Part shown: positions 1-23,029 of the stretch, piece after piece
How positions within the stretch are numbered: position 1 is the first letter of the stretch
Layout: each line of letters opens with the position of its first letter
IMG/VR virus record: IMGVR_UViG_2703718857_000002
Direction: 5' to 3' (one strand)
DNA length: 23,029 nt
Source: a virus
Lineage: Duplodnaviria; Heunggongvirae; Uroviricota; Caudoviricetes
Made by a program: the position numbers and the translations under genes
Notes under the pieces: model-generated
The model's input: only the letters and a program-made list of their open reading frames with translations
What the model was told of the DNA's origin: nothing
Database searches by the model: none

Positions 1-549
1 TCAGCTAGCTGGAAACTTTTTATACAGAGTTGAGAGCCCTACTCCATACGTTTTTGATACGCTTTGTCGTGATTCACCGGTTGCCATCCGCTCCCCCATT
101 TCCCGCCATTGCTCATCCGTGAACTTAGGCCTGCGACCACCAACTCGCCATTTTGCCCTGGCTACGGCCAGCCCTGCTAAGGTACGTTCGCTATTAAGAT
201 CAGATTCATATTGTGCTGCGGAAAGGATGTTACGAAAGTTATAGCGGCCGCTGGCTGTTTTGAGATCCACGCCATCGGTAATACTGCGGAAGTTGATACC
301 CTTTTCCTGTAACTGCTGGAACATCAACAGCGCATGCAGAACGTTGCGGCCTATCCTGTCCAGCTTCCAGACCACCAGTTCATCCCCCGGCTGCATAGTG
401 GCGATCAGCCGTTTTAGAACCGGCCGATTCGATTTCCTCCCGCTGGCATGCTCTTCAAAAATTTTCTCACAACCCGCTGACTTGAGCGCCGTTAGTTGCA
501 ATTCAGTGTCCTGGTGGTTTGTTGATACTCGGGCATAACCGTAAATCAT
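1..549 (-). CDS. Serine recombinase of the DNA-invertase (Hin/Gin/Cin/Pin) family, 182 aa
   Basis: Complete ORF: ATG at 549..547, stop TGA at 3..1. N-terminus MIYGYARVSTNHQD carries the catalytic-serine motif of small serine recombinases; C-terminal HTH (SVSKTYGVGLSTLYKKF). AGGAGAA Shine-Dalgarno lies within the upstream palindrome. Family assignment is from established knowledge of the family. Confidence 0.9.
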   Translation of the reverse strand: MIYGYARVSTNHQDTELQLTALKSAGCEKIFEEHASGRKSNRPVLKRLIATMQPGDELVVWKLDRIGRNVLHALLMFQQLQEKGINFRSITDGVDLKTASGRYNFRNILSAAQYESDLNSERTLAGLAVARAKWRVGGRRPKFTDEQWREMGERMATGESRQSVSKTYGVGLSTLYKKFPAS

Positions 550-4923: not shown

Positions 4924-5187
4924 ATGATTTTAATAAATAAATACACTCCTCCAACGCAGGAAGATTTAGCCAGACTGAAATCCGCAATAAACTACTCCGG
5001 AAACCAAATGGCAGGGCTCGCAGGTGTAGCCAGCGATAGCCAATGGCGGAAATACACTGGCGGAGAGAGCCCCAGGGTAATGTCAAGACACATACTGTTT
5101 TATATTGCAGCTCAGCTTGTTCTGTCTGATGAGCAACTTAACAATGTAATAAATAAAATGCGCGATATTGGCGCGGAGATAAAATAA
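4924..5187 (+). CDS. Small XRE-type helix-turn-helix protein, 87 aa; putative regulator of the downstream acyltransferase
   Basis: ATG at 4924 with AAGAG-type Shine-Dalgarno (the ORF track starts at GTG 4900). Segment ...GNQMAGLAGVASDSQWRKYTGGESPRVMSRHILFYIAAQL... fits an XRE-like HTH pattern. Its stop overlaps the acyltransferase ATG (TAATG). Confidence 0.55.
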   Translation: MILINKYTPPTQEDLARLKSAINYSGNQMAGLAGVASDSQWRKYTGGESPRVMSRHILFYIAAQLVLSDEQLNNVINKMRDIGAEIK

Positions 5188-6278
5188 TGCTTGGCCTAAT
5201 AAGGTTTTTTTTGGCATCGTGCGTCATTGCTTTTCACTTAACGGCTCGCATACCTGCACTTGGCAACTTTGCAGTGAATTGCTTCTATGTTATCAGTGGT
5301 TTTTTAATAACATACATTTTGCATGAAACATACAAGTTCAACTTCTCTATGTTTTGGAAAAATAGAATACTGAGGTTATTCCCGGCATATATATTTTTTC
5401 TCGTCATGGGCTTTCTTATTATAAAATTAATTCCATCCGCAAAGGAATTCCACTCAAACTGGACAGGCAATTTCTTACCTGGAGATTTATTAGGAAACCT
5501 CTTAATCTTCCCCTGGGCTTTCCTTTCTGATAATGCTGTAGCAAATCCATTCGGTGCCTTTTCATCCATTTATCACTTTGCTATTGATGGTAATAGATTC
5601 AGAATAGTCACATCATCATGGTCAGTGGGTGTTGAGATAACATGTTATTTTTTATTGTGGCTTTTCATAGCCCGAAATAAATTTACAGCCATTACGTCGA
5701 TTCTGCTTTCACTGCTTTATCATGCTTACGTATATGTAGTACACCATTCTTTTGATATGGCGTATTTCCCATTCCTTGCTGCAACACTTCCTTTTAGCAT
5801 GGGTTCTCTGGGTTATTTTGCCCATAGAAAGTTCAAAGCTATGTATCTTTCTCCACACAAAGCTTTTTTAATAACATTTATTTGCATCGGGATTTTTATT
5901 ACCAATTGGTATTTATATACAATTAATGCATTAGGTCAGTACAACATAATACTTTACTACACCAATAATGTAATAGCATTGTTTACAACCCTGGTATTAT
6001 TAAAAATAAAGACAAACATACATCTTGAGAAAATACTCAAGTGGTTTGGTGACCTGGCCTATCCAATTTTTCTTTGTCAATATTTTGGTGGATTTCTAGC
6101 ATGGCTTGCTATTGGTGGTGAAAATCGTGGCTTATCCATCTTTTTATTAGGCTACCCAATATCAATTGCACTTGGGATCGTTTGTGTAATATTAATAGAC
6201 AAGCCACTAATTAAAATTAGAGCAAAAATAAGGGCGGACGCTCAAAGCAAAAATAATCAGGAAAACTCTTCAAGGTAA
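5187..6278 (+). CDS. Acyltransferase family 3 (AT3) integral membrane protein, 363 aa; probable O-antigen/LPS O-acetyltransferase (Oac/OafA-like)
   Basis: N-terminal His in the first hydrophobic segment (...VIAFHLTARIPALG...) and the VNCFYVISGFLIT motif typical of AT3 acyltransferases; multiple hydrophobic segments throughout. Gene body is visibly AT-rich, roughly one-third G+C by eye. The LPS substrate is inferred from the prophage tail-fibre context. Confidence 0.8.
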   Translation: MLGLIRFFLASCVIAFHLTARIPALGNFAVNCFYVISGFLITYILHETYKFNFSMFWKNRILRLFPAYIFFLVMGFLIIKLIPSAKEFHSNWTGNFLPGDLLGNLLIFPWAFLSDNAVANPFGAFSSIYHFAIDGNRFRIVTSSWSVGVEITCYFLLWLFIARNKFTAITSILLSLLYHAYVYVVHHSFDMAYFPFLAATLPFSMGSLGYFAHRKFKAMYLSPHKAFLITFICIGIFITNWYLYTINALGQYNIILYYTNNVIALFTTLVLLKIKTNIHLEKILKWFGDLAYPIFLCQYFGGFLAWLAIGGENRGLSIFLLGYPISIALGIVCVILIDKPLIKIRAKIRADAQSKNNQENSSR

Positions 6279-9905: not shown

Positions 9906-10777
9906 TGGTTTAGTCCGGGTATTTGCTGGTAGAAAGCATAAGGCTGGACAGCGAAAGCCTCCGGGGGCATCAGATAAAGGCGCGCATGGGTGCCGTCACT
10001 GTCTCTGATATAAGTCACCTCTGCGATAAGCAATTCGGTGTCAGGCAGCTGCAGACTCGGGATGTTGACCGGGATAAGCGTATTCGGCTCCCATAATTTC
10101 CCGGATTTATCGCGCCAGGAATCAATCGTCACCGTTAACTGACGGGAACGGCCGTATCGGCGGTTCATCTCCCAGTCAATCGCTCGCTGAGCCTGTTGTG
10201 AAGCCATCAGTGTACTTTCAACAATAATGATCCGTTTTCGGTAACGCATACTGGCCGCCTCAGGATCGCGGGCCGTCGCCAGCGTCACCGAATCATAAGC
10301 CGTATCTGGCGAGAATCCTGCAATCGGCGAAATGCTCATCGATACGCCGACGTAATCAGAAAAGCGGTCAGCCATCGAACGGCGGTAATAAGCCTGTTCG
10401 ATATTTACCCCTTCTGCGATACCGCTGGCCGCGCGCTTTGTCCCCACCCGGGTCAGAAATAAGTTACCGTCAGGCTGATCGTAATAAAGCAATGCCGACC
10501 AGCGGGAGACACGATCAAGTATTTCCTGTGGCGATTCCCCCCAGTTCAGGGAAAATTGCGGAACTTTCACCAGATCATCAACGTCTGTACTTACGCCAAT
10601 GTTGTAATGGGATGCGAGGCGGGAGGCTATATCAAGCGCATTACTGTTATTGATGACGTTATTTGGCCATTCAGCAGAGCAATCAACGAGATCTGCGCAC
10701 TTACTGCGGCCTGAGGCTCTGACTTCATGGCGCGAACGGGAAATAGCAGGCGACCAGTCATCAACATACCCCGTCAC
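9902..10777 (-). pseudogene. 5'-truncated baseplate hub gene (Mu gp44 / P2 gpD family), 291 codons retained
   Basis: Frame opens at a GTG at 10777 that overlaps the portal stop codon in a different frame. C-terminal region ...LLIAEVTYIRDSDGTHARLYLMPPEAF resembles the conserved end of gpD-family proteins. Full-length homologues are about 380 aa (from memory), implying loss of roughly 90 N-terminal residues. Confidence 0.5.
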
Positions 10778-11931
10778 TACCAGGTACCGGATGAGAAATT
10801 ACGCAATACTGCAGACTCGAAAACCTCAAAGTTGCTGTAAGGGCGGGCAGCGTTGACCGTTGTTATTCTCTCCCCTGGATAAAGGATCGGCATACGGGCG
10901 CCATTCTGCAGCGTCAAACGGCGATCATTATGAAACTCTGCACGACCATCCTGGTATGCTCCCAATCCCTCTTCGAAGTTTTCCCCCAGCGCGGACTGGA
11001 TCATTTCGGGATCGTATGGAGACTCAATATACGCGGCGAAGATAGCATTCAGAATTGCTGCTTCCAGCTCGCTCTGGTCGTACTTCACCAGCATCTTCAG
11101 ACGTTGCACTACTGGAGTCAGAATGCCATTCCCCCGATGCTGAGCTCCACGCTCATGGTCAAAGTCGTGCACAACGTGCGGGCGCCCCCATGCGGTTTCG
11201 CGCGGGATTCGTCGCCATGTCATTGTTTTGGCGCCACTCCACCAGTCACCGATATGTGCTTCACGTATGTGATAAGCCACAGGTGCGCCGTCAGCATCAA
11301 TTTCAACGCCGCCGCGGATATTCGGCATATCAAAATTCTGCTGCGGGTTACTGAGTCTGTCGGGATCAACAACCTGCACCGTCGTGGCATAACGCCCCTT
11401 ACCTGGTCCAAGGCGATCGGTGCGATACTGAAGCACCATCAGGGCATCGCCATCAATCAGCTTGTGGCGAAAGGCCAGACGCAACATTTGTGGAACGGTT
11501 AGCTTGCGCTCAACGTCACAATAACGGCCTGTGTCGTATGCCCAGGTTCTCCAGTGGGAAGCGAGTGCTTTTCCGTACTCTTCCGCCCATACTGCGTCAA
11601 AACTTTTATTACCTGTCATCATCCGTAATACACGATAGTCAGGCTTCATGATCGGACGGAAATTGGCGCCGACCGCATTATCAAGCAGGCGAGTTATGGC
11701 ACCATTGGCCCATCCATCATTTCGGACCAGATCCCGCGCACGGGAAACTATACGGTCACGGTAGATATTAATTTCGTTATCCGGTGACCATAGTGCGGGC
11801 TGCCAGTTCGCCAGTTGATCGCTGAAGGAATCCGCGGCGTCATATGGCACCCGGCTACCGCCCGTCAACATGCTGGGTTTTGGTGCCTGATAAGGTCTCC
11901 CGTCAGGACCAAGGATTTGCACTTTATTCAT
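10777..11931 (-). pseudogene. 3'-truncated portal gene (lambda gpB family), 384 codons retained
   Basis: N-terminus MNKVQILGPDGRPY, the VERKLT motif and ...AILNAIFAAYIES... parallel lambda gpB; the ORF stops at ...NFEVFESAVLRNFSSGTW, where lambda-family portals continue for about 140 more residues (from memory). Start overlaps the gpW-like stop by 1 nt. Confidence 0.65.
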
Positions 11932-12202: not shown

Positions 12203-14335
12203 TTATTGCGGCAGGAGTTTAGAAATGTTCTTACGCTTAACAGGAGCCATAGCCTCATCCACGATGGCACCCGGTAATTCGTAATTGATTTTTTCTTCTG
12301 GCTCGGCTGGCGCCGGCAGGAACTTATCGGGATCGGCCTGAAGGTTAGCGGCCCGAACATTGAGTTTTAATCCCATATGTTTCAGCCCACACAACGCGGC
12401 ATAGCTGTAAACGAGGCAGTCGAGTGCTTCGTTCGCCCGTCCGGGGATAGGCTCCCAGACACTGAATCGCTGACCGGCCACCACTTTATAAACCAGTCGC
12501 TCGGCCAGCAGCTGGTTGAAATATCCGAGGTCACGATCATCCGGGAAGTGCATATAGCCCGCACCGGCAGTACCTAAAGCTGGCGGTTCAAGATGCAGAC
12601 GACCACGGACAACATCTTTCGCAGAGTTCACGCCAAGTATAATTGGCCTGAAGCTGGCTTTACTTTTCGATGTCGGTCGCTTGGTTGGCCAGACGGGGTT
12701 GCGTTTCCCACCCTGCGCAGATTCGCCCTTGATAGCCCAGACGCGGCGCCCAAGGCGATCTTTGCAGAACTCATAAACCTTTTGCGTGTGGTGACCGCCG
12801 GAGTCCATACATGCAGCCAGAATATTCAGCCCTCGCCCGTCGCCGCGTCGCCATATCTGTTTCAGGTACGCATCGAGGCGCTTCCAGGGTTCCTCAGTCT
12901 CCAGATCGCCATAAATGACGTCATGCGCAACTGACCACGATTCCTCGTCCCGCCCCCAGCCAGTGATCGTGATTTCGAATCGGTCATCCTGGGTATCGAC
13001 GCCCGCAGTTAACAATGCCACGCCATCAGGAACGACGGCCGGGAAGACTTCACGGCGCGCCAGCAGGACATCAACCGGGAGCTGTTTCCCGTGGTTAGGC
13101 CGGTGCGGCAACCCCATCTGGGTGTTCCACCAGGCCTGTTCCTTATCCGGATCCCCTTTCGCATCGAGGTATTTCTTTGCAATGTCCGATGGCTTATCTT
13201 TTTGCCAGGGACTGAAGAGTTTTGACGCCTGGTACCCGGCGTGGTGATTATCCAGCGCCTCGGCCCCGCAGTCCGGGCAAATCGCCCGGTATACGGCATG
13301 CCGTTCCGACTCTGACCAGCGCCAGACGGCATCAACACTGCCCTCGTCTCCTTCATGCCATTTCTGGTCGTATTCCATTAATGGTGAATGGCGGGAACCA
13401 CAACATTCAAACGGTTTGGTCTGATGCCAGCGGATTGTCTGTAATGCCCGCAGACGCTCACCCTCTGACCAGCCAGCACCACAACATTCACAATGGATCA
13501 TGGCCGCTTTGGTCAGGTGCTTATCACCTTCTTTTGGCCATTGAACATGTTTGAAGAAATCAAGGAACTGTCGGTGCCCGCAATGGGGGCAAACTACAGA
13601 GGCCCGCCGCTGATCTGAATCTTCGTAACTGTCAGCAATCCGGCTTTCATCTTCGACCGTCGGCGAACAAGCCCGCACGGACAGCCAGTTAAGGCCAAAT
13701 GTGGCGGTTCGCTCTTCCGCCAGAGCGATGGGATCGCCCTCACGGGTAATCGGATATTTATCCACCTCATCTGCCAGCAGAACACGGATCGGACGGCGCG
13801 CAAGGTTATCTGGACTACCGGCGCCGGCCAGCGCCAGAAATCCGCCGGTGAAAGCTTTATACAGAATGGTTTCTTTTGAACTCTTCTGCTTTGAGTCACC
13901 TATGATGTTACGCAGAACTGGCGTTACCCTAACCAGCGGGCTGATGCGTTCTTTGGAAAACTGCTCAGCGGCCTCTTCCTTCGGCTGCAGGAGCAAAATC
14001 GGACATGGGTCGAGGTGCGCAAAATAACCAAACAGGTTTTCCAGCAGCGCGGTTTTCATTAACTGGGTACAGCACATCACGGTGATAATGTGGACGCCCG
14101 ATTCCGTCGCGGCCAGCATAGGACCGCGGGCAATTTCAACCGTTGATGTTTCCCAGTTCCCGGAGGTACTGCCAGCTTCTTTCGCCAGCTTCCGGTAGTC
14201 ATCGGCCCATTGCGGGACGCTGATCCGCGGCGGCGGTGTCCACCCTTTCCGGACACTCAGTTGAAGACGCTCAATCTTCCGCTGGGTTAAACTCTGGTTC
14301 TCCGAGGACTGAGATATGTTTGTGGACATGTTCAA
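12203..14335 (-). CDS. Terminase large subunit (lambda GpA family), 710 aa
   Basis: Long ORF with cysteine-rich zinc-finger-like cluster (CPHCGH...CECCGAGW...CPDCG) and overall resemblance to GpA-type terminases. Immediately downstream of and overlapping the Nu1-like gene. Confidence 0.85.
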   Translation of the reverse strand: MNMSTNISQSSENQSLTQRKIERLQLSVRKGWTPPPRISVPQWADDYRKLAKEAGSTSGNWETSTVEIARGPMLAATESGVHIITVMCCTQLMKTALLENLFGYFAHLDPCPILLLQPKEEAAEQFSKERISPLVRVTPVLRNIIGDSKQKSSKETILYKAFTGGFLALAGAGSPDNLARRPIRVLLADEVDKYPITREGDPIALAEERTATFGLNWLSVRACSPTVEDESRIADSYEDSDQRRASVVCPHCGHRQFLDFFKHVQWPKEGDKHLTKAAMIHCECCGAGWSEGERLRALQTIRWHQTKPFECCGSRHSPLMEYDQKWHEGDEGSVDAVWRWSESERHAVYRAICPDCGAEALDNHHAGYQASKLFSPWQKDKPSDIAKKYLDAKGDPDKEQAWWNTQMGLPHRPNHGKQLPVDVLLARREVFPAVVPDGVALLTAGVDTQDDRFEITITGWGRDEESWSVAHDVIYGDLETEEPWKRLDAYLKQIWRRGDGRGLNILAACMDSGGHHTQKVYEFCKDRLGRRVWAIKGESAQGGKRNPVWPTKRPTSKSKASFRPIILGVNSAKDVVRGRLHLEPPALGTAGAGYMHFPDDRDLGYFNQLLAERLVYKVVAGQRFSVWEPIPGRANEALDCLVYSYAALCGLKHMGLKLNVRAANLQADPDKFLPAPAEPEEKINYELPGAIVDEAMAPVKRKNISKLLPQ

Positions 14336-14834
14336 TCAGCACCTCTGTCATCCTGTCCGCCGGCACATTCAGATCGGCGGCTATCAGCGGTGCCACGCGT
14401 GAAGGCCAGTTCAGCCAGGCATCACGCTGCTGGCGAAAGGCGTTAAACAGAACCTCCTCGGCGATGGCCAATTCAATTGTCTGGCCGCTGTCTTTTTCAT
14501 ACTGGAGCTTTGCCTGCAGGGCCATGTAATTTTCACGGATCCGCGCGGCCTCTTCCCTGGAAAGGACTGCACCTTCTGTAAACATTATCTGGCGAACGGT
14601 TTCATCAATTTCATCGTCGCCATCATTCCGGGGTGCTGGGGCTTTTTTCTTCTTCGCGTTTGATGCCCGCGGATCTTTTCCATCACGGTTTTTCTTCAGC
14701 GCGGCATCGCTCGCCTCAACATCAATCAGGTCGCCATCCATGACGATAAACCGACCAGCCTTGATCCATCGGCCAATAGTCTTGCGATCGACGCCTGAAT
14801 GTTGCGCGTACTGACTCTGGTTCATCGTGGTCAT
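14271..14834 (-). CDS. Terminase small subunit (lambda Nu1-like), 187 aa
   Basis: N-terminal winged-HTH region MNQSQYAQHSGVDRKTIGRWIKAGRF resembles Nu1. Overlaps the 5' end of the large-subunit gene by 65 nt, as in lambda. Start could be ATG 14834 or the ATG 3 codons downstream. Confidence 0.8.
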   Translation of the reverse strand: MTTMNQSQYAQHSGVDRKTIGRWIKAGRFIVMDGDLIDVEASDAALKKNRDGKDPRASNAKKKKAPAPRNDGDDEIDETVRQIMFTEGAVLSREEAARIRENYMALQAKLQYEKDSGQTIELAIAEEVLFNAFRQQRDAWLNWPSRVAPLIAADLNVPADRMTEVLIEHVHKHISVLGEPEFNPAED

Positions 14835-14981
14835 GGGACATCACCTGGGACATTTTTGGGGTGGGACATTTACCTGGGACATTTTTTCAATGTCCCACAC
14901 GAATGTCCCACTGGAATAAATGGAATAATCCGTGCTGGCTCTGGCGTGGCTGGCGATCCCTTGGGGTGGGACATGGGACAC
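14834..14981. repeat. Array of TGGGACA(T/C) repeats (5 direct TGGGACAT plus 1 TGGGACAC, 2 inverted copies) immediately upstream of the terminase small-subunit gene; candidate cosB-like terminase-binding region
   Basis: TGGGACAT at 14834, 14846, 14862, 14875 and 14967; TGGGACAC at 14974; inverted ATGTCCCA at 14890 and 14903. Location matches where lambda-type phages carry Nu1 binding sites next to cos. Confidence 0.5.
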
Positions 14982-15071
14982 AAAATAAAAGTTTGTAGCT
15001 AGGAAAACACTGCGGCGCGCAATGCCCGTGCCTTACAAAAGGCTCAGGAAGGACCCAAAACCCCTGGGGGG

Positions 15072-15713
15072 CTATCTGGCCGAGCTGATCGCCTCAGCAA
15101 TCGCCTGGTGCAGCGCTGAGGGTAACAATGCGTTGGCCATGGTGTTTGCCCTGTCCATATAGCCGAGCGTTGGTTTGACTGGAAGCGAGTCTCCAAACCG
15201 AATGAGCAATTTTGGTGCAGGTTGCTTAATCTTGTCTCTGCGCGTGCCGTTCGGAGAACGTTTTGCCCGTTTCTTCCCTTTTTTGGTTTTCGGCTTTTTT
15301 CTCTGCCACACGGCATTCACGCCACCAACGTCACCAATAAATACGTTTGGCTTTGCTTTGAGCTGAGAGAGCTTATTACGCGGCAGGTTGCCGTATTTAT
15401 TAAGCTTTATGTCTTTCGGGTTAAGCAAAGCACTACCATTAAGCTTGTGCTCTCCGCCGAACTCGAAGGGTTCAAGGTAACCAGCAGCAGTATCACGAAC
15501 AAACACCTTCGCACGAAGGCTGTTTTTCCTGGCACCAACTGACCCAACCGATTTAACTGTAAAAGGTGTTGGATTATCCAGATTCCGCTCAAATGCTGTT
15601 TTTTGGGCCGCTTCTATCTGGCGAACCACTTTAGTCATAGCCTGGGCAGTCGCAAACGGTATTTGCTTCTGCAGCTGTCTTAACTGACTGGAAAGGTCCT
15701 TAAGCGTTGCCAT
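15072..15713 (-). CDS. Hypothetical basic protein, 213 aa
   Basis: ATG at 15713 with AGGTGG Shine-Dalgarno. Contains a strongly basic tract QRKKPKTKKGKKRAKRSPNGTRRDK. Located between the lysis cassette and cos; no family recognised. Confidence 0.55.
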   Translation of the reverse strand: MATLKDLSSQLRQLQKQIPFATAQAMTKVVRQIEAAQKTAFERNLDNPTPFTVKSVGSVGARKNSLRAKVFVRDTAAGYLEPFEFGGEHKLNGSALLNPKDIKLNKYGNLPRNKLSQLKAKPNVFIGDVGGVNAVWQRKKPKTKKGKKRAKRSPNGTRRDKIKQPAPKLLIRFGDSLPVKPTLGYMDRANTMANALLPSALHQAIAEAISSAR

Positions 15714-15762
15714 ATCATTGACCACCTAGTTACAGTAATTAAGATCAGTTTGCTCATAAAGT

Positions 15763-16226: not shown

Positions 16227-16697
16227 TCAATTTAAGCACTGCTCTTTGATGTATTCCTGCAAATATCCAACCTGTTTCGTCACTGTGACGATTCGCTCTC
16301 TGAGGGTGAAATAATCCCGTTCAGCGGAGTCAGTAAGTCGGGGGCCGGTAACATCGCCCAGGCCGCCGGTGCTGGTCGTTCCGTTCGCGGGACAGTTTGC
16401 GTTGAGCTGCAGCCGCTTACGGCCAGCAATGACATCGCTATGCAGACGCTCAATGGTTTCTTTCGCATCAGCCAGTTCTCCGGTGTATTTGGCATCCAGT
16501 GCAGCGACATCACGCTGGCGGGTCTGCATGTCTTTAATGGTGGCGGTCGCCAGGAGGAGTTTCTCAGTGGCCTTATCGCGCTGGTCTCTGTAAGTGATGG
16601 CGTTGTCGCGGTAGTGGTTCACGAAGAAAGCCAGTGCGCCGATTAACGCCAGCACCAGCAACTGCAGCCAGTAACGCTTAACCAGTGCGCTAATCAT
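16227..16697 (-). CDS. Rz-type i-spanin, 156 aa
   Basis: N-terminal transmembrane segment ([17 protein letters not shown]) followed by a charged coiled-coil-like region; ATGA overlap with the lysozyme gene; contains the embedded Rz1 frame. Confidence 0.8.
16280..16468 (-). CDS. Rz1-type o-spanin lipoprotein, 62 aa, embedded in Rz in an alternative frame
   Basis: [22 protein letters not shown]... has a lipoprotein signal with lipobox cysteine, followed by a proline-rich mature region (...[19 protein letters not shown]). Start taken at the internal ATG at 16468. Confidence 0.75.
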
Positions 16698-17134
16698 GAC
16701 AGGAACAGAGCTCGCTCTGCCTCCCGCCGACGTGTCAGCCCATTCAGCACCTTCCCACCAGCTTTATTCCAGCGCAGGAACTCATCGGCTGCACCAGCGT
16801 AATCTCCGGCGTTGAGTTTTCGCAGGAGAGTCGATGTCGACAATGACCGCGCACCGAGGTTATACGTGAACGACACCAGGGCATCGAATTGCCCCTGAGT
16901 CAGGCCAACTTTAACCAGTCGTGACACGTCACTTTCGTAACTGACCATTCCTGTCTTCAGCAGGCGTTCTGCCGTTTCCTGCTTAATTGTCATCCCGGCA
17001 CGGATTGGTTTCCCGTCGACGGGCTGAGTCCAGCCATAACCGATCGTCCAAACGCCGACGCTGTCCTGATAGGCAGTGAGCTTGCAACCTTCGAACTCTT
17101 TGATCAGGGCAATGCCTTTATCACTGGTTTGCAT
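16694..17134 (-). CDS. Phage lysozyme (T4-type, GH24; P22 gp19-like), 146 aa
   Basis: Translation [34 protein letters not shown]... ending ...[12 protein letters not shown] closely parallels P22 lysozyme, including the catalytic Glu in EFEG. Confidence 0.9.
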
Positions 17135-17610: not shown

Positions 17611-17641
17611 CAAATAAAAAAGCCCCGCACGATGGCGAGGC
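17611..17641 (-). terminator. Rho-independent terminator (distal) in the Q-like/holin intergenic region
   Basis: Minus-strand hairpin GCCTCGC-CATCGT-GCGGGGC (one G-U pair) followed by TTTTTTATTTG; shares the flanking AAATAAAAAAGCC motif with the proximal terminator. Confidence 0.5.
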
Positions 17642-17707
17642 TCTTAATTCTTTGTCGACCTACGAAGCTATGGCGACGATATCAGATTTACATGAAATAT
17701 ATGCGTT

Positions 17708-20619: not shown

Positions 20620-20680
20620 TACCTATGCGCGGAAATGATCAACGTTTTAAGAGCACAAATTGTTAATTTTCTGTCAGTAG

Positions 20681-20709
20681 TAAAAAAAGAAAACCCGCCG
20701 TAGCGGGTT
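20681..20709 (-). terminator. Rho-independent terminator (minus-strand orientation) upstream of the DinI-like promoter
   Basis: Minus-strand hairpin AACCCGC-TACG-GCGGGTT followed by TTTCTTTTTTT. Would insulate the DinI-like promoter from minus-strand read-through coming from the integrase side. Confidence 0.5.
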
Positions 20710-20842
20710 GAATTAGCGATGTTTTATTACGCCGCTATTTGTTTCTGCTGACAAAGCTCCTGTATCAAACCCGAAACAGCAGATCGCTTATCTGGCACTC
20801 AAATACTGGGCGCGCCTGTATTGCCCTGCAGTTGTTCTTGGT

Positions 20843-21319
20843 GTGTACACCCCTGATGAGATTGAACAGCGCACAGAAAAAGAGATCAACCCAACGCCGC
20901 AACGCGTTAGCCTGGCTGATATCTCAGGTGACACCGTCACAACCACGCAAAGCGCACAGGAATCGTCGGTAAATGTCGACTCTCTTGCCGATGATTTCCG
21001 CGAACGCATCGAATCTGCTCAGGACGTGGATAGCGCCAAATCGCTGCGTGCCGACATTGAAACGGCGAAAGCTACGCTGGGATCCGCACTATTCACCGAG
21101 CTGAAAAACAAAGCCGTAAAGCGTTATTACCTAGTGGATGCACGCAACAAGGTTGAGGAGGCTATTAAATCCCTGCCCCAGCCCGACGAGCCGCATGCAG
21201 CCGAACGGTTCGCTGAAGCCGAGCGCATGCTTGCATCTTCAAAGCGTCACTTAGGCGATGAACTGCACGATCAATTCAGCATCACCCTGGCGGATATGAA
21301 ACCGGAATACGTGGCCTGA
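20843..21319 (+). CDS. Hypothetical acidic protein, 158 aa from GTG; possibly the 3' remnant of a longer gene
   Basis: The frame is open from 20717 with no ATG before the GTG at 20843, and the upstream in-frame translation (...IAYLALKYWARLYCPAVVLG...) looks protein-like. No family recognised. Confidence 0.4.
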   Translation: MYTPDEIEQRTEKEINPTPQRVSLADISGDTVTTTQSAQESSVNVDSLADDFRERIESAQDVDSAKSLRADIETAKATLGSALFTELKNKAVKRYYLVDARNKVEEAIKSLPQPDEPHAAERFAEAERMLASSKRHLGDELHDQFSITLADMKPEYVA

Positions 21320-21357
21320 CGAGACCGGGAGGGGTAACCCTCCCTCAAGGAGATTAT

Positions 21358-21600
21358 ATGCGACTGATCAATCGAGGAAGTAAGCAATCACCTTTAGCTC
21401 GCCAAGCATGCGACATCGCGCTGGCAGCTCACTTGCAAACATATGGCGACTATGGGCGAAGCAAGATGAAAGAGACTTATACGGTGAAGGTTGAAGGCGT
21501 GAAAGTCTGGGTGGAGGTGGTGAACCGAAAGGCGAGCTACGTGGCCACAGCGATGACCGGCATGCGCCGTCTCCGCTCCCTGCCCGGGCAGGTTGGTTGA
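21358..21600 (+). CDS. Hypothetical protein, 80 aa
   Basis: Strong AAGGAG Shine-Dalgarno 7 nt upstream of the ATG; no family recognised. Confidence 0.5.
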   Translation: MRLINRGSKQSPLARQACDIALAAHLQTYGDYGRSKMKETYTVKVEGVKVWVEVVNRKASYVATAMTGMRRLRSLPGQVG

Positions 21601-21641
21601 AAAAGATTTTGAATGGCCCGAACGGGCAACTGGAGAGAGCT

Positions 21642-21839
21642 ATGGATGATATTTTGGTAACGTCAGACCTGACCAGTCGCTACAAAATTTCACGCAAAAC
21701 CCTTTGGTCATGGCAAAGTGCAGACACAATGCCTCGGGGCTTCGTATGCCCGTTCCCACCCCCTGACTGGCCCGGCAACCCTAACCGCTGGCGCTCTGAG
21801 TCAATCAAAGAGTGGGAGGATAAAAAGAAGATAAATTAA
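21642..21839 (+). CDS. AlpA/Xis-like small DNA-binding protein, 65 aa
   Basis: [25 protein letters not shown]...[11 protein letters not shown] fits the AlpA/excisionase-type HTH pattern. ATG at 21642 with GGAGAGAG Shine-Dalgarno (the ORF track starts at TTG 21597). 3' end overlaps the integrase 3' end (convergent). Confidence 0.55.
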
Positions 21840-23029
21840 CTGAAGGGCTCTCCGATGATCTCTTCAAGATGGCTCTGCCAAACGCGGAGCCAGTGTTTCT
21901 GATCATCGATATAGTCATGAAGGTTGTAATGCGCCATAACCCCCACCATCTGATGCCCGAGCAGCTTTTCAATTACGTGCGGCGGGCAACCTAACTCAGA
22001 GAGATTTGTGGCTATCGTCCGCCTCATATCATGAAGCGACCACTCTGCCATACCTGTTCCATTCCAAATAGAACGGGCGTAATTGGATGCCACAGGTGAA
22101 TGAACGGGCGAATCTTTGATCCCGCCATCAATTTTACGTTGTGAAGTCACCAGGTGATTGGTGTTTATTTTCTTGAGGTGATTTCTGACCAGGTTAACGG
22201 CGGCGTCTGAGAGTCCCCTTCTAATATGTACCCGAGTTTTATAACTGCCCGCAGGCACGACCCACTCATTATCATCCAATCGAAACCATGATCTCTCACT
22301 AAGTCGAATCTCAGCCGTACGGCATCCGGTAAGCATAATAAATTTCACCAGGAAAACGGACTCTATCGACATATGGCTTTTCAACCACTGATAGATTTTG
22401 CGCAGATCGTCATCGTCCATCCTGCGAGTTCTCTTTTTAGGCTTTTGCCCGACATCAGATGGCAGTAATCCCTCGAGTGGGTTTGAGGCGATCACACTTC
22501 TGTTAACGCAGAACCTAAACGCCCGTTTGCACAGCGAAAGCATGTAATGAGCCATCACCCTGCTTTCTATAGAATCGAAGACGTTGATCCAGTGCATTTT
22601 CGCTGTGTTATCGACTTTGACATTCTTCATCGGTTCGGCGATATGTTTCTCAAACACCTGGCGATAGTAATCGACTTTAACTAGCCCGTTAGCGATACAG
22701 TGCCTTTCAATCCAGTAATTGAACGCTTCGGCAACGGACATCGCTTCCTGTCGGGTCTGCTTATCCAGCTTCACCTGCTCTCGCGGATCCAGTCCCTCAG
22801 TTAACCAGTTTCTGAATTGTTGGCGACGCTCTCTTGCCTGGGTGATACTCATTGCAGGATAATCACCAACATTGAGTTTTACCGCTTTACCGGCCCAGCG
22901 ATACCGATAGAAAAATGATATTTTTCCGGCCTGGCTGATTCTGGCGTTGAGCCCGTGCGAATCAGAAATAATCTCGATATCATCTCTTTTCTTGCCGAGC
23001 GCCTTCCTGAGCTTTGTGTCGGTGATCAT
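21836..23029 (-). CDS. int: Tyrosine integrase, P4-type, 397 aa; start coincides with the window edge
   Basis: N-terminal arm-binding region (...[32 protein letters not shown]...) and C-terminal catalytic region (...[11 protein letters not shown]...[18 protein letters not shown] with Arg, His-x-x-Arg and Tyr). The ATG sits at the last 3 nt of the window, so a slightly longer N-terminus cannot be excluded. Confidence 0.9.

Follow-up and report, generated by a model that had tools for sequence, protein, structure and literature searches.

Specificity cassettes made up of cosB and the small terminase subunit (TerS) are, as a concept, textbook lambda biology. In lambda, the gene for the small subunit, Nu1, starts at bp 191, and the R2 site of cosB is inverted with respect to R3 and R1 (PMC9026076, PMC4669245). 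R3 lies at bp 50-65 in lambda and at bp 48-60 in N15, complex cosBs have an IHF site (I1) between R3 and R2, which N15 is without, and cosN of lambda has two-fold symmetry at 10 of 16 bp (PMC9026076). The known E. coli PICIs have a cosB unlike that of the helper and need Rpp (PMC6739421). Closer to the DNA studied here is Serratia phage vB_SspM_BZS1, whose cohesive end was determined with PhageTerm on virion reads and confirmed by comparing the sequence of a PCR product from the prophage cos with the phage DNA ends; the portion of that report that was available gives the cohesive end, and no cosB (PMC7556043).

The DNA analysed here, referred to as the window, is a stretch of 23,029 nt from a tailed phage (IMG/VR record IMGVR_UViG_2703718857_000002). 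An earlier note, made from the letters alone, had pointed out a cluster of TGGGACA(T/C) repeats upstream of a terminase small subunit gene and had read it as a candidate cosB-like packaging site. In this work the cluster was compared with known cos regions and followed through related prophages and other genomes.

Results

Eight copies of an 8-bp motif lie between a predicted cosN and the terminase genes

An exact search of both strands gave 8 matches to TGGGACAY in the window, all of them within 14834-14981. The plus strand carries five copies of TGGGACAT (at 14834, 14846, 14862, 14875 and 14967) and one of TGGGACAC (14974), and the minus strand carries two further TGGGACAT copies (14890 and 14903), so that the earlier listing of five direct copies, one variant and two inverted copies in about 150 bp was exact. 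Dinucleotide-preserving shuffles gave 1.31 ± 0.98 matches in the whole window, with a maximum of 3. By arithmetic from this mean, only about 0.008 matches are expected per 148 nt, and a chance origin of the cluster is therefore excluded. Outside the array, the window has no TGTCCCA/TGGGACA 7-mer.

Both terminase genes lie on the minus strand, and in gene orientation the motif of the array is therefore RTGTCCCA. The framing in the earlier note needs correction in this one respect. The features of the locus are given below in gene order; bp numbers are those of the mature chromosome, with bp 1 at the predicted window position 15025.

15050 to 15056, minus strand: cosQ-like heptamer GGGTCCT, 24 nt upstream of the predicted nick; conserved across the family
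15014 to 15025, minus strand: cosN, predicted 12-nt 5' cohesive end GCATTGCGCGCC; assigned by identity to the BZS1 end and by conserved flanks on both sides
14982 to 15013, minus strand: conserved 32-nt linker between cosN and cosB, GCAGTGTTTTCCTAGCTACAAACTTTTATTTT; length fixed across specificity classes
14974 to 14981, minus strand: copy 1, GTGTCCCA in gene orientation, bp 45-52; cosN-proximal half of a tandem pair, at the position equivalent to R3
14967 to 14974, minus strand: copy 2, ATGTCCCA, bp 52-59; second half of the tandem pair, with one base in common with copy 1
14911 to 14966, no strand assigned: 56-nt spacer from the tandem pair to the inverted copies, at the position of lambda I1; 30-80% conserved, indels tolerated
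14903 to 14910, plus strand: copy 3, inverted with respect to the others, bp 116-123; R2-like orientation
14890 to 14897, plus strand: copy 4, inverted, bp 129-136
14875 to 14882, minus strand: copy 5, direct, bp 144-151; an A-tract precedes it in gene orientation
14862 to 14869, minus strand: copy 6, direct, bp 157-164
14846 to 14853, minus strand: copy 7, direct, bp 173-180
14834 to 14841, minus strand: copy 8, direct, bp 185-192; its final A is the A of the TerS ATG (bp 192)
14271 to 14834, minus strand: TerS, small terminase subunit, 187 aa; phrog_57 'terminase small subunit', E = 2.6e-34
12203 to 14335, minus strand: TerL, large terminase subunit of the gpA family; Pfam GpA_ATPase 9e-66, GpA_nuclease 3e-81

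The array thus fills the gap from cosN to the TerS start codon at 14834. Its copies are arranged in pairs with spacings of 7, 13, 13 and 12 nt, and the central four are taken in by a 23-nt imperfect palindrome (14861-14883 / 14889-14911). An AGGTGA ribosome-binding site, which copy 8 abuts, is found just upstream of the TerS start, and the junction TGTCCCATG between this copy and the TerS start is kept even in TerS relatives of only 55-70% identity.

The cohesive end is that of phage BZS1 and the layout is that of lambda

In blastn searches, the only cultured phages matched were BZS1 and Citrobacter phage phiNP, both via the 217-aa gene upstream of the array. The linear record of BZS1 starts with an annotated 12-nt left cohesive end, GCATTGCGCGCC. 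The cosN-like nick site that the earlier note proposed to look for nearby was found by homology, as a 12-mer identical to this end at 15014-15025, and it is on this homology that the nick positions given here for the prophage are placed. Both phages are identical to the window in the 12-nt end and its flanks, and they have the same gene order (217-aa gene, cos, TerS, TerL, W, portal) and a myovirus tail module. They differ from it in the TerS N-terminus and in cosB, which are of a class with the motif GGTAACA; in both, cosB is short, with only the cosN-proximal copies, and TerS starts at about bp 75. The cohesive end has been mapped only in BZS1, that is, in a phage that is of the other specificity class in both TerS and cosB. 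A tblastn search of the collection of cultured phages found no TerS of the window's type, the best match being about 30% identical.

Compared with lambda, the subsites follow in the same order, cosQ-cosN-cosB, and in the same direction relative to TerS and TerL. The heptamer GGGTCCT is identical, at 23 nt from the nick in lambda and 24 nt here, and a 12-nt 5' overhang, established for BZS1, is inferred here by homology. The tandem pair, at bp 45-59, is placed much as R3 is in lambda and N15, the TerS ATG at bp 192 stands next to the position of the Nu1 start, and the orientations of the copies (direct, inverted, direct) are those of R3-R2-R1. A gpA-family TerL, gpW, a lambda-family portal and the predicted winged-helix fold of TerS complete the likeness. 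Other features differ. Lambda has three 16-bp R sites, whereas eight 8-bp copies of RTGTCCCA are found here; the cohesive ends agree at only 5 of 12 positions; the two-fold symmetry of cosN is 6 of 16 bp by our own count; TerS is without detectable sequence similarity to Nu1; and the IHF consensus WATCAANNNNTTR has no match with at most one mismatch in 14834-15025. Among the hallmarks of a lambda-type cos we found a predicted cosN with a gpA-family TerL, cosQ, the placement of cosB and co-variation with TerS (see below), and no IHF consensus. As the copies are more numerous and shorter, the lambda model may not hold for stoichiometry and geometry.

The part of the spacer beside the inverted copies (14911-14935) holds a direct repeat, TATTCCA...TATTCCA (GGATTATTCCATTTATTCCAG in gene orientation), which is kept among close E. 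coli relatives, and not in the distant loci with the same type of TerS. It could be a host-factor site in place of lambda I1.

TerS is a predicted winged-helix protein without detectable sequence similarity to Nu1

The TerS ORF overlaps that of TerL, and gpW and the portal come after TerL. In this group of temperate myoviruses of the Enterobacterales, TerS is labelled 'hypothetical protein' almost everywhere. It had been called Nu1-like in the earlier note, a name that suits its position and its predicted fold but not its sequence family: no Pfam match, to Phage_Nu1 or to any other family, was obtained even at E ≤ 10, phmmer against PDB sequences found nothing, and a BLASTP comparison with Nu1 reached E = 0.27 over residues that are not homologous. 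With the Pfam and PDB sequence searches negative, the link to Nu1 is by fold only.

An AlphaFold2 model of TerS built from 36 homologues has a mean pLDDT of 71.7, with about 77-80 in the N-terminal domain. Residues 1 to about 50 are predicted to form a winged helix-turn-helix (beta-helix-helix-beta-beta-helix), with a recognition helix at about residues 17-26 (RKTIGRWIKA), followed by a disordered linker (57-72) and conserved C-terminal helices. The N-terminal fold matches the DNA-binding domains of TerS proteins, including that of lambda, and then those of excisionases, BldC and AlpA; Foldseek gave the same set of TerS fold matches, with weak E-values. The modelled architecture would therefore be that of a TerS, an N-terminal winged helix-turn-helix followed by a helical region for oligomerisation and TerL binding.

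By its domains, TerL would provide the cosN nuclease and the packaging ATPase, and it appears intact. Over 13640-14335, the part compared, it is 97-100% identical to its counterpart in a complete prophage, and over the region compared both terminase subunits of the window's prophage appear intact.

The repeat motif changes with the N-terminal domain of TerS

IMG/VR was scanned with a 16-mer from cosN, which gave at least 120 loci and, among those listed, 65 distinct cos regions with a recognisable TerS. All 32 distinct regions with a TerS of the window's type (class A, N-terminus of the form ..A.H.GV[DN]RKT..RW.K.G..) carry 5-9 copies of TGTCCCA/TGGGACA and none of GGTAACA, a pattern that still holds for relatives as distant as 55-70% identity. 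Where TerS is of the BZS1 type (class B, ..LH.VSRKTVT.WK.RGW..), about 28 distinct regions carry 1-7 copies of GGTAACA/TGTTACC and none of TGTCCCA. These counts refer to distinct cos regions (about 60) and not to phylogenetically independent events, and within them the partition of the two motifs, RTGTCCCA and RGGTAACA, by the class of the N-terminal winged helix of TerS is perfect. The two motifs have R.GT..CA in common and differ at 3 of 8 positions. In the recognition helix, class A has GR at positions 21-22 and an inserted I24, where class B has TT or TM. Relatives that share this terminase and lack the repeats, which the earlier note had named as evidence against its proposal, were thus looked for and none was found among the 32 class-A regions, and the switch of the motif with the DNA-binding domain of TerS supports its suggestion, at the level of sequence, of a terminase specificity distinct from that of lambda.

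The tandem pair keeps one and the same offset from cosN throughout the class-A loci and, built from the other motif, throughout the class-B loci. Within the 32 class-A regions, conservation is 90-100% in the columns of the motif, against 30-80% in the DNA between copies, where indels occur that are not multiples of three. These observations bear on whether the array has a function at all. A 67-aa ORF (14799-15002, plus strand) can be read through the repeats, so that they might be an ORF by-product or a non-functional simple repeat; yet the copies cluster far beyond chance, they stand in both orientations, and they are kept across genera while the intervening DNA diverges without regard to a reading frame. 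Given this clustering and conservation, together with the co-variation with TerS, we consider a non-functional repeat effectively refuted.

Three IMG/VR contigs (L070, L108 and L053) have three more N-terminal types of TerS on the same cosN 16-mer, and in the slot at bp 45-60 they carry tandem repeats of their own, TTCACA, GTTTCA and ATGTCCGCAC. With RTGTCCCA, RGGTAACA and at least these three others, the sequences point to at least five packaging specificities on one cosN.

The closest comparison is offered by an E. coli prophage, L007, which is 97-100% identical to the window left of 14360 and right of about 14995 and unrelated to it between these points. In the protein alignment, the TerS of L007 has a class-B N-terminus on a C-terminus nearly identical to that of the window. 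Since the two are near-identical on either side, the exchanged piece consists of cosB and the 5' part of TerS only. This pair also speaks to the possibility that the repeats bind another protein that organises cos, either a host nucleoid protein or the product of the upstream 217-aa gene (15072-15725). Lambda cosB does include a host-factor site, that for IHF, and the 217-aa gene is always found upstream of cos in this family. However, window and L007 are 95-100% identical over 15072-15485, have the same host species and a near-identical TerS C-terminus and TerL, and their repeats nevertheless differ. The motif tracks the N-terminal domain of TerS only, and a host factor would not switch along with a phage cassette. 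Recognition by such a protein is thus extremely improbable, and TerS is the predicted partner of the array.

Arrays beside cosN in loci with and without a terminase

The GTDB species genomes (596 Gb) were scanned with the 16-mer of the tandem pair instead of cosN, and at least 120 matches were listed. Of the 120 listed, 100 were mostly lone chance matches, about 280 being expected by chance in 596 Gb by arithmetic. Because most matches were of this kind, a filter on local copy number (at least 4 copies within 200 nt) was applied, which 20 of the 120 passed. In 17 of these 20, the array is followed by a class-A TerS and preceded, at about 45 nt, by a cosN-like sequence. These 17 are spread across Enterobacterales (Kluyvera, Morganella, Photorhabdus, Arsenophonus, Hafnia, Raoultella, Rahnella, Yersinia, Xenorhabdus and Salmonella). 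In two of the three exceptions a TGTCCCA array accompanies a diverged cosN, and the locus is without any TerS or TerL:

L230, Morganella morganii H1r, NZ_AYMP01000004, about 16690-16790 of the contig: array in a locus with a 917-aa P4-alpha-like primase and a ProQ/FinO protein
L213, JAHEOE010000100, 5.7-kb MAG contig: array in a locus with an SSB gene

Both carry the diverged cosN GACATTGTGCGCC, the tandem pair and 7-9 more TGTCCCA copies, and neither has a GGGTCCT box. From their sequences they look like phage satellites that copy the cosB of a helper, and this, with the P4-alpha-like primase near the Morganella array, suggests piracy of this packaging system. A repeat cluster of GTGGGACA upstream of a P4-type integrase in a Magnetococcales MAG (JADFWP010000080) was judged unrelated to any terminase. 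These repeats are probably arm-type sites of the integrase, and the case indicates that the motif by itself is not diagnostic.

That the two terminase-less loci keep the array although they have no TerS gene speaks for a role in packaging rather than in regulation of the TerS gene, the function that would be expected if the repeats were operators at which TerS or another winged-helix regulator bound to autoregulate transcription or translation of the terminase operon, with no part in packaging. Some features of the locus would suit such operators: the last copy abuts the ribosome-binding site and the start codon, the imperfect palindrome of the central four copies is typical of operators, and the fold class of TerS is common to the MerR, Xis, AlpA and BldC regulators. 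On the other hand, a promoter and terminator scan found no sigma-70-like promoter in 14600-15300, and the operon is placed downstream of the Q antiterminator and the lysis cassette, like lambdoid late operons. Moreover, in long and short cosB forms alike it is cosN, rather than the gene start, from which the tandem pair lies at a fixed distance, and the terminase-less elements keep the array beside cosN with no TerS gene to regulate. Regulation as the sole function is therefore very unlikely; a secondary autoregulatory effect of the copy at the start codon, beside a cosB function, is possible.

The prophage in the window has lost its head and tail-shaft genes

The genes upstream of the array are those for the conserved 217-aa protein, a DUF2513 protein, lysis, Q and NinG, and an integrase and a Pin-like invertase are found at opposite ends of the window. 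This gene content is that of a defective lambdoid myovirus prophage in the style of e14 and SfV. The portal ends at residue 384 and runs straight into a truncated Mu gpP-like baseplate hub (junction 10777-10790). A 99.9% identical relative in E. coli 23CRST046 has a complete portal, protease, decoration protein, capsid, sheath, tube, tape measure and baseplate; it follows that the prophage of the window lost about 10.8 kb, from mid-portal to mid-baseplate hub, and, judged by its genes, it could build neither heads nor tail shafts. The description of the locus as a prophage without head genes is accordingly right for the window, but the same cos and TerS are also found in complete prophages. 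None of the 5,426 complete E. coli genomes searched has the deletion junction. The headless state is thus private to the source of the window, and it gives no sign of selection for a cos/terminase relic.

Other parts of the prophage gave some separate observations. An Rfam scan had no match in the cos region, and its sole match in the window was to isrJ, an Hfq-binding sRNA (17619-17692, minus strand; 68.7 bits against a gathering score of 37), between the Q antiterminator and holin genes, the place where a leader transcript from a lambdoid late promoter would be. The early region is lacking, in that in 20650-23029 no replication or immunity genes are found between the DinI gene and the integrase, unlike in the 23CRST046 relative; three small plus-strand ORFs (158-aa; DUF4060; 80-aa AlpA-like) converge there on a P4-type integrase with Arm-DNA-bind_3. 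A low-GC (37%) acyltransferase-3 gene (5187-6278, plus strand) stands among the tail-fibre genes and may code for an O-antigen acetylase of the serotype-conversion type. The gene of the Pin-like serine invertase occupies 1-549 (minus strand), at the left end.

Discussion

We propose, with a probability of about 0.87, that the array is cosB, the predicted TerS-binding site of a lambda-type cos that runs on the minus strand from cosQ (15050-15056) through cosN (15014-15025) to cosB (14834-14981). The anatomy, the conservation of the copies and their co-variation with a domain of TerS can be read directly from the sequences compared. The proposal is well supported because the motif and TerS change together, because cosB and the TerS domain have been swapped as one cassette, and because the array occurs in terminase-less loci. 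The alternatives considered above fit poorly with the fixed spacing from cosN, with the swapped cassette, with the loci that lack a terminase and with the pattern of conservation. The cosB-like reading of the earlier note is in this way supported by a cosN 32 nt from the array, by cosQ, by the lambda-like layout, by copy conservation and by co-variation with the TerS domain, as far as sequence comparison reaches.

By analogy with the lambda paradigm, the N-terminal winged helix-turn-helix of TerS would recognise the 8-bp RTGTCCCA. The tandem pair (bp 45-59), held at a fixed distance from cosN, would anchor TerL, which would then make staggered nicks and leave the 12-nt 5' overhang GCATTGCGCGCC. 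The two inverted and four direct copies would have the accessory role of R2 and R1 in lambda, stabilising a higher-order TerS-DNA complex on the end to be packaged, and packaging would run towards TerS and TerL and stop at the next cosQ/cosN. In the window itself this module is a relic of a prophage that lacks about 10.8 kb.

The lambda-21 and lambda-N15 hybrids with exchanged left-end segments (PMC4669245) have a natural counterpart in the window and L007, where a cassette of about 500-600 nt is swapped while cosQ, cosN, the TerS C-terminus and TerL are kept unchanged. The contrast between simple and complex cosBs, as in N15 versus Monarch, also recurs inside this family, since both forms are present, the long ones being those of the window and L007. 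A short form of the TGTCCCA class was not found among the loci sampled. Cos-type satellites, such as Gram-negative PICIs with the Rpp adaptor and P4-like elements, are the known systems closest to the two terminase-less loci, which, unlike the known E. coli PICIs, appear to copy a helper-type cosB. The window itself does not belong among these elements, being a decayed prophage with a terminase of its own. What is new is the motif, its multi-copy paired layout, an unannotated TerS family, the alternative specificities on one cosN and the putative satellites.

A wider reading can be built on this. DNA wrapping around an oligomeric TerS has been proposed for the small terminases of pac phages, and eight short paired sites with a 23-nt central dyad could wrap DNA around TerS in the same manner. 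The cassette of cosB and the TerS domain would circulate among near-identical Enterobacterales prophages as a 'packaging incompatibility' module, with at least five motif classes on one cosN, and the satellites of Morganella H1r and of the MAG contig would pirate class-A helpers via a copied cosB, without an adaptor of the Rpp type. If all this were true, the headless prophage of the window would be packageable by any superinfecting class-A phage. Taken jointly, wrapping, a circulating cassette, Rpp-free piracy and a packageable relic make a tentative picture that we regard as rather doubtful in its entirety. A superinfecting class-A phage should in principle recognise this cos; mobilisation of the relic by a helper is speculation.

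For the widespread temperate myoviruses of the Enterobacterales, the comparison of RTGTCCCA with RGGTAACA, paired with two TerS recognition helices, would provide a recognition code that is concrete and testable. The near-isogenic cassette swaps found in nature are material for studying how winged-helix TerS proteins discriminate between DNA sequences. Such a code would serve annotation as a guide to placing cos in these prophages, and it may make packaging compatibility predictable between prophages, defective prophages and putative satellites.
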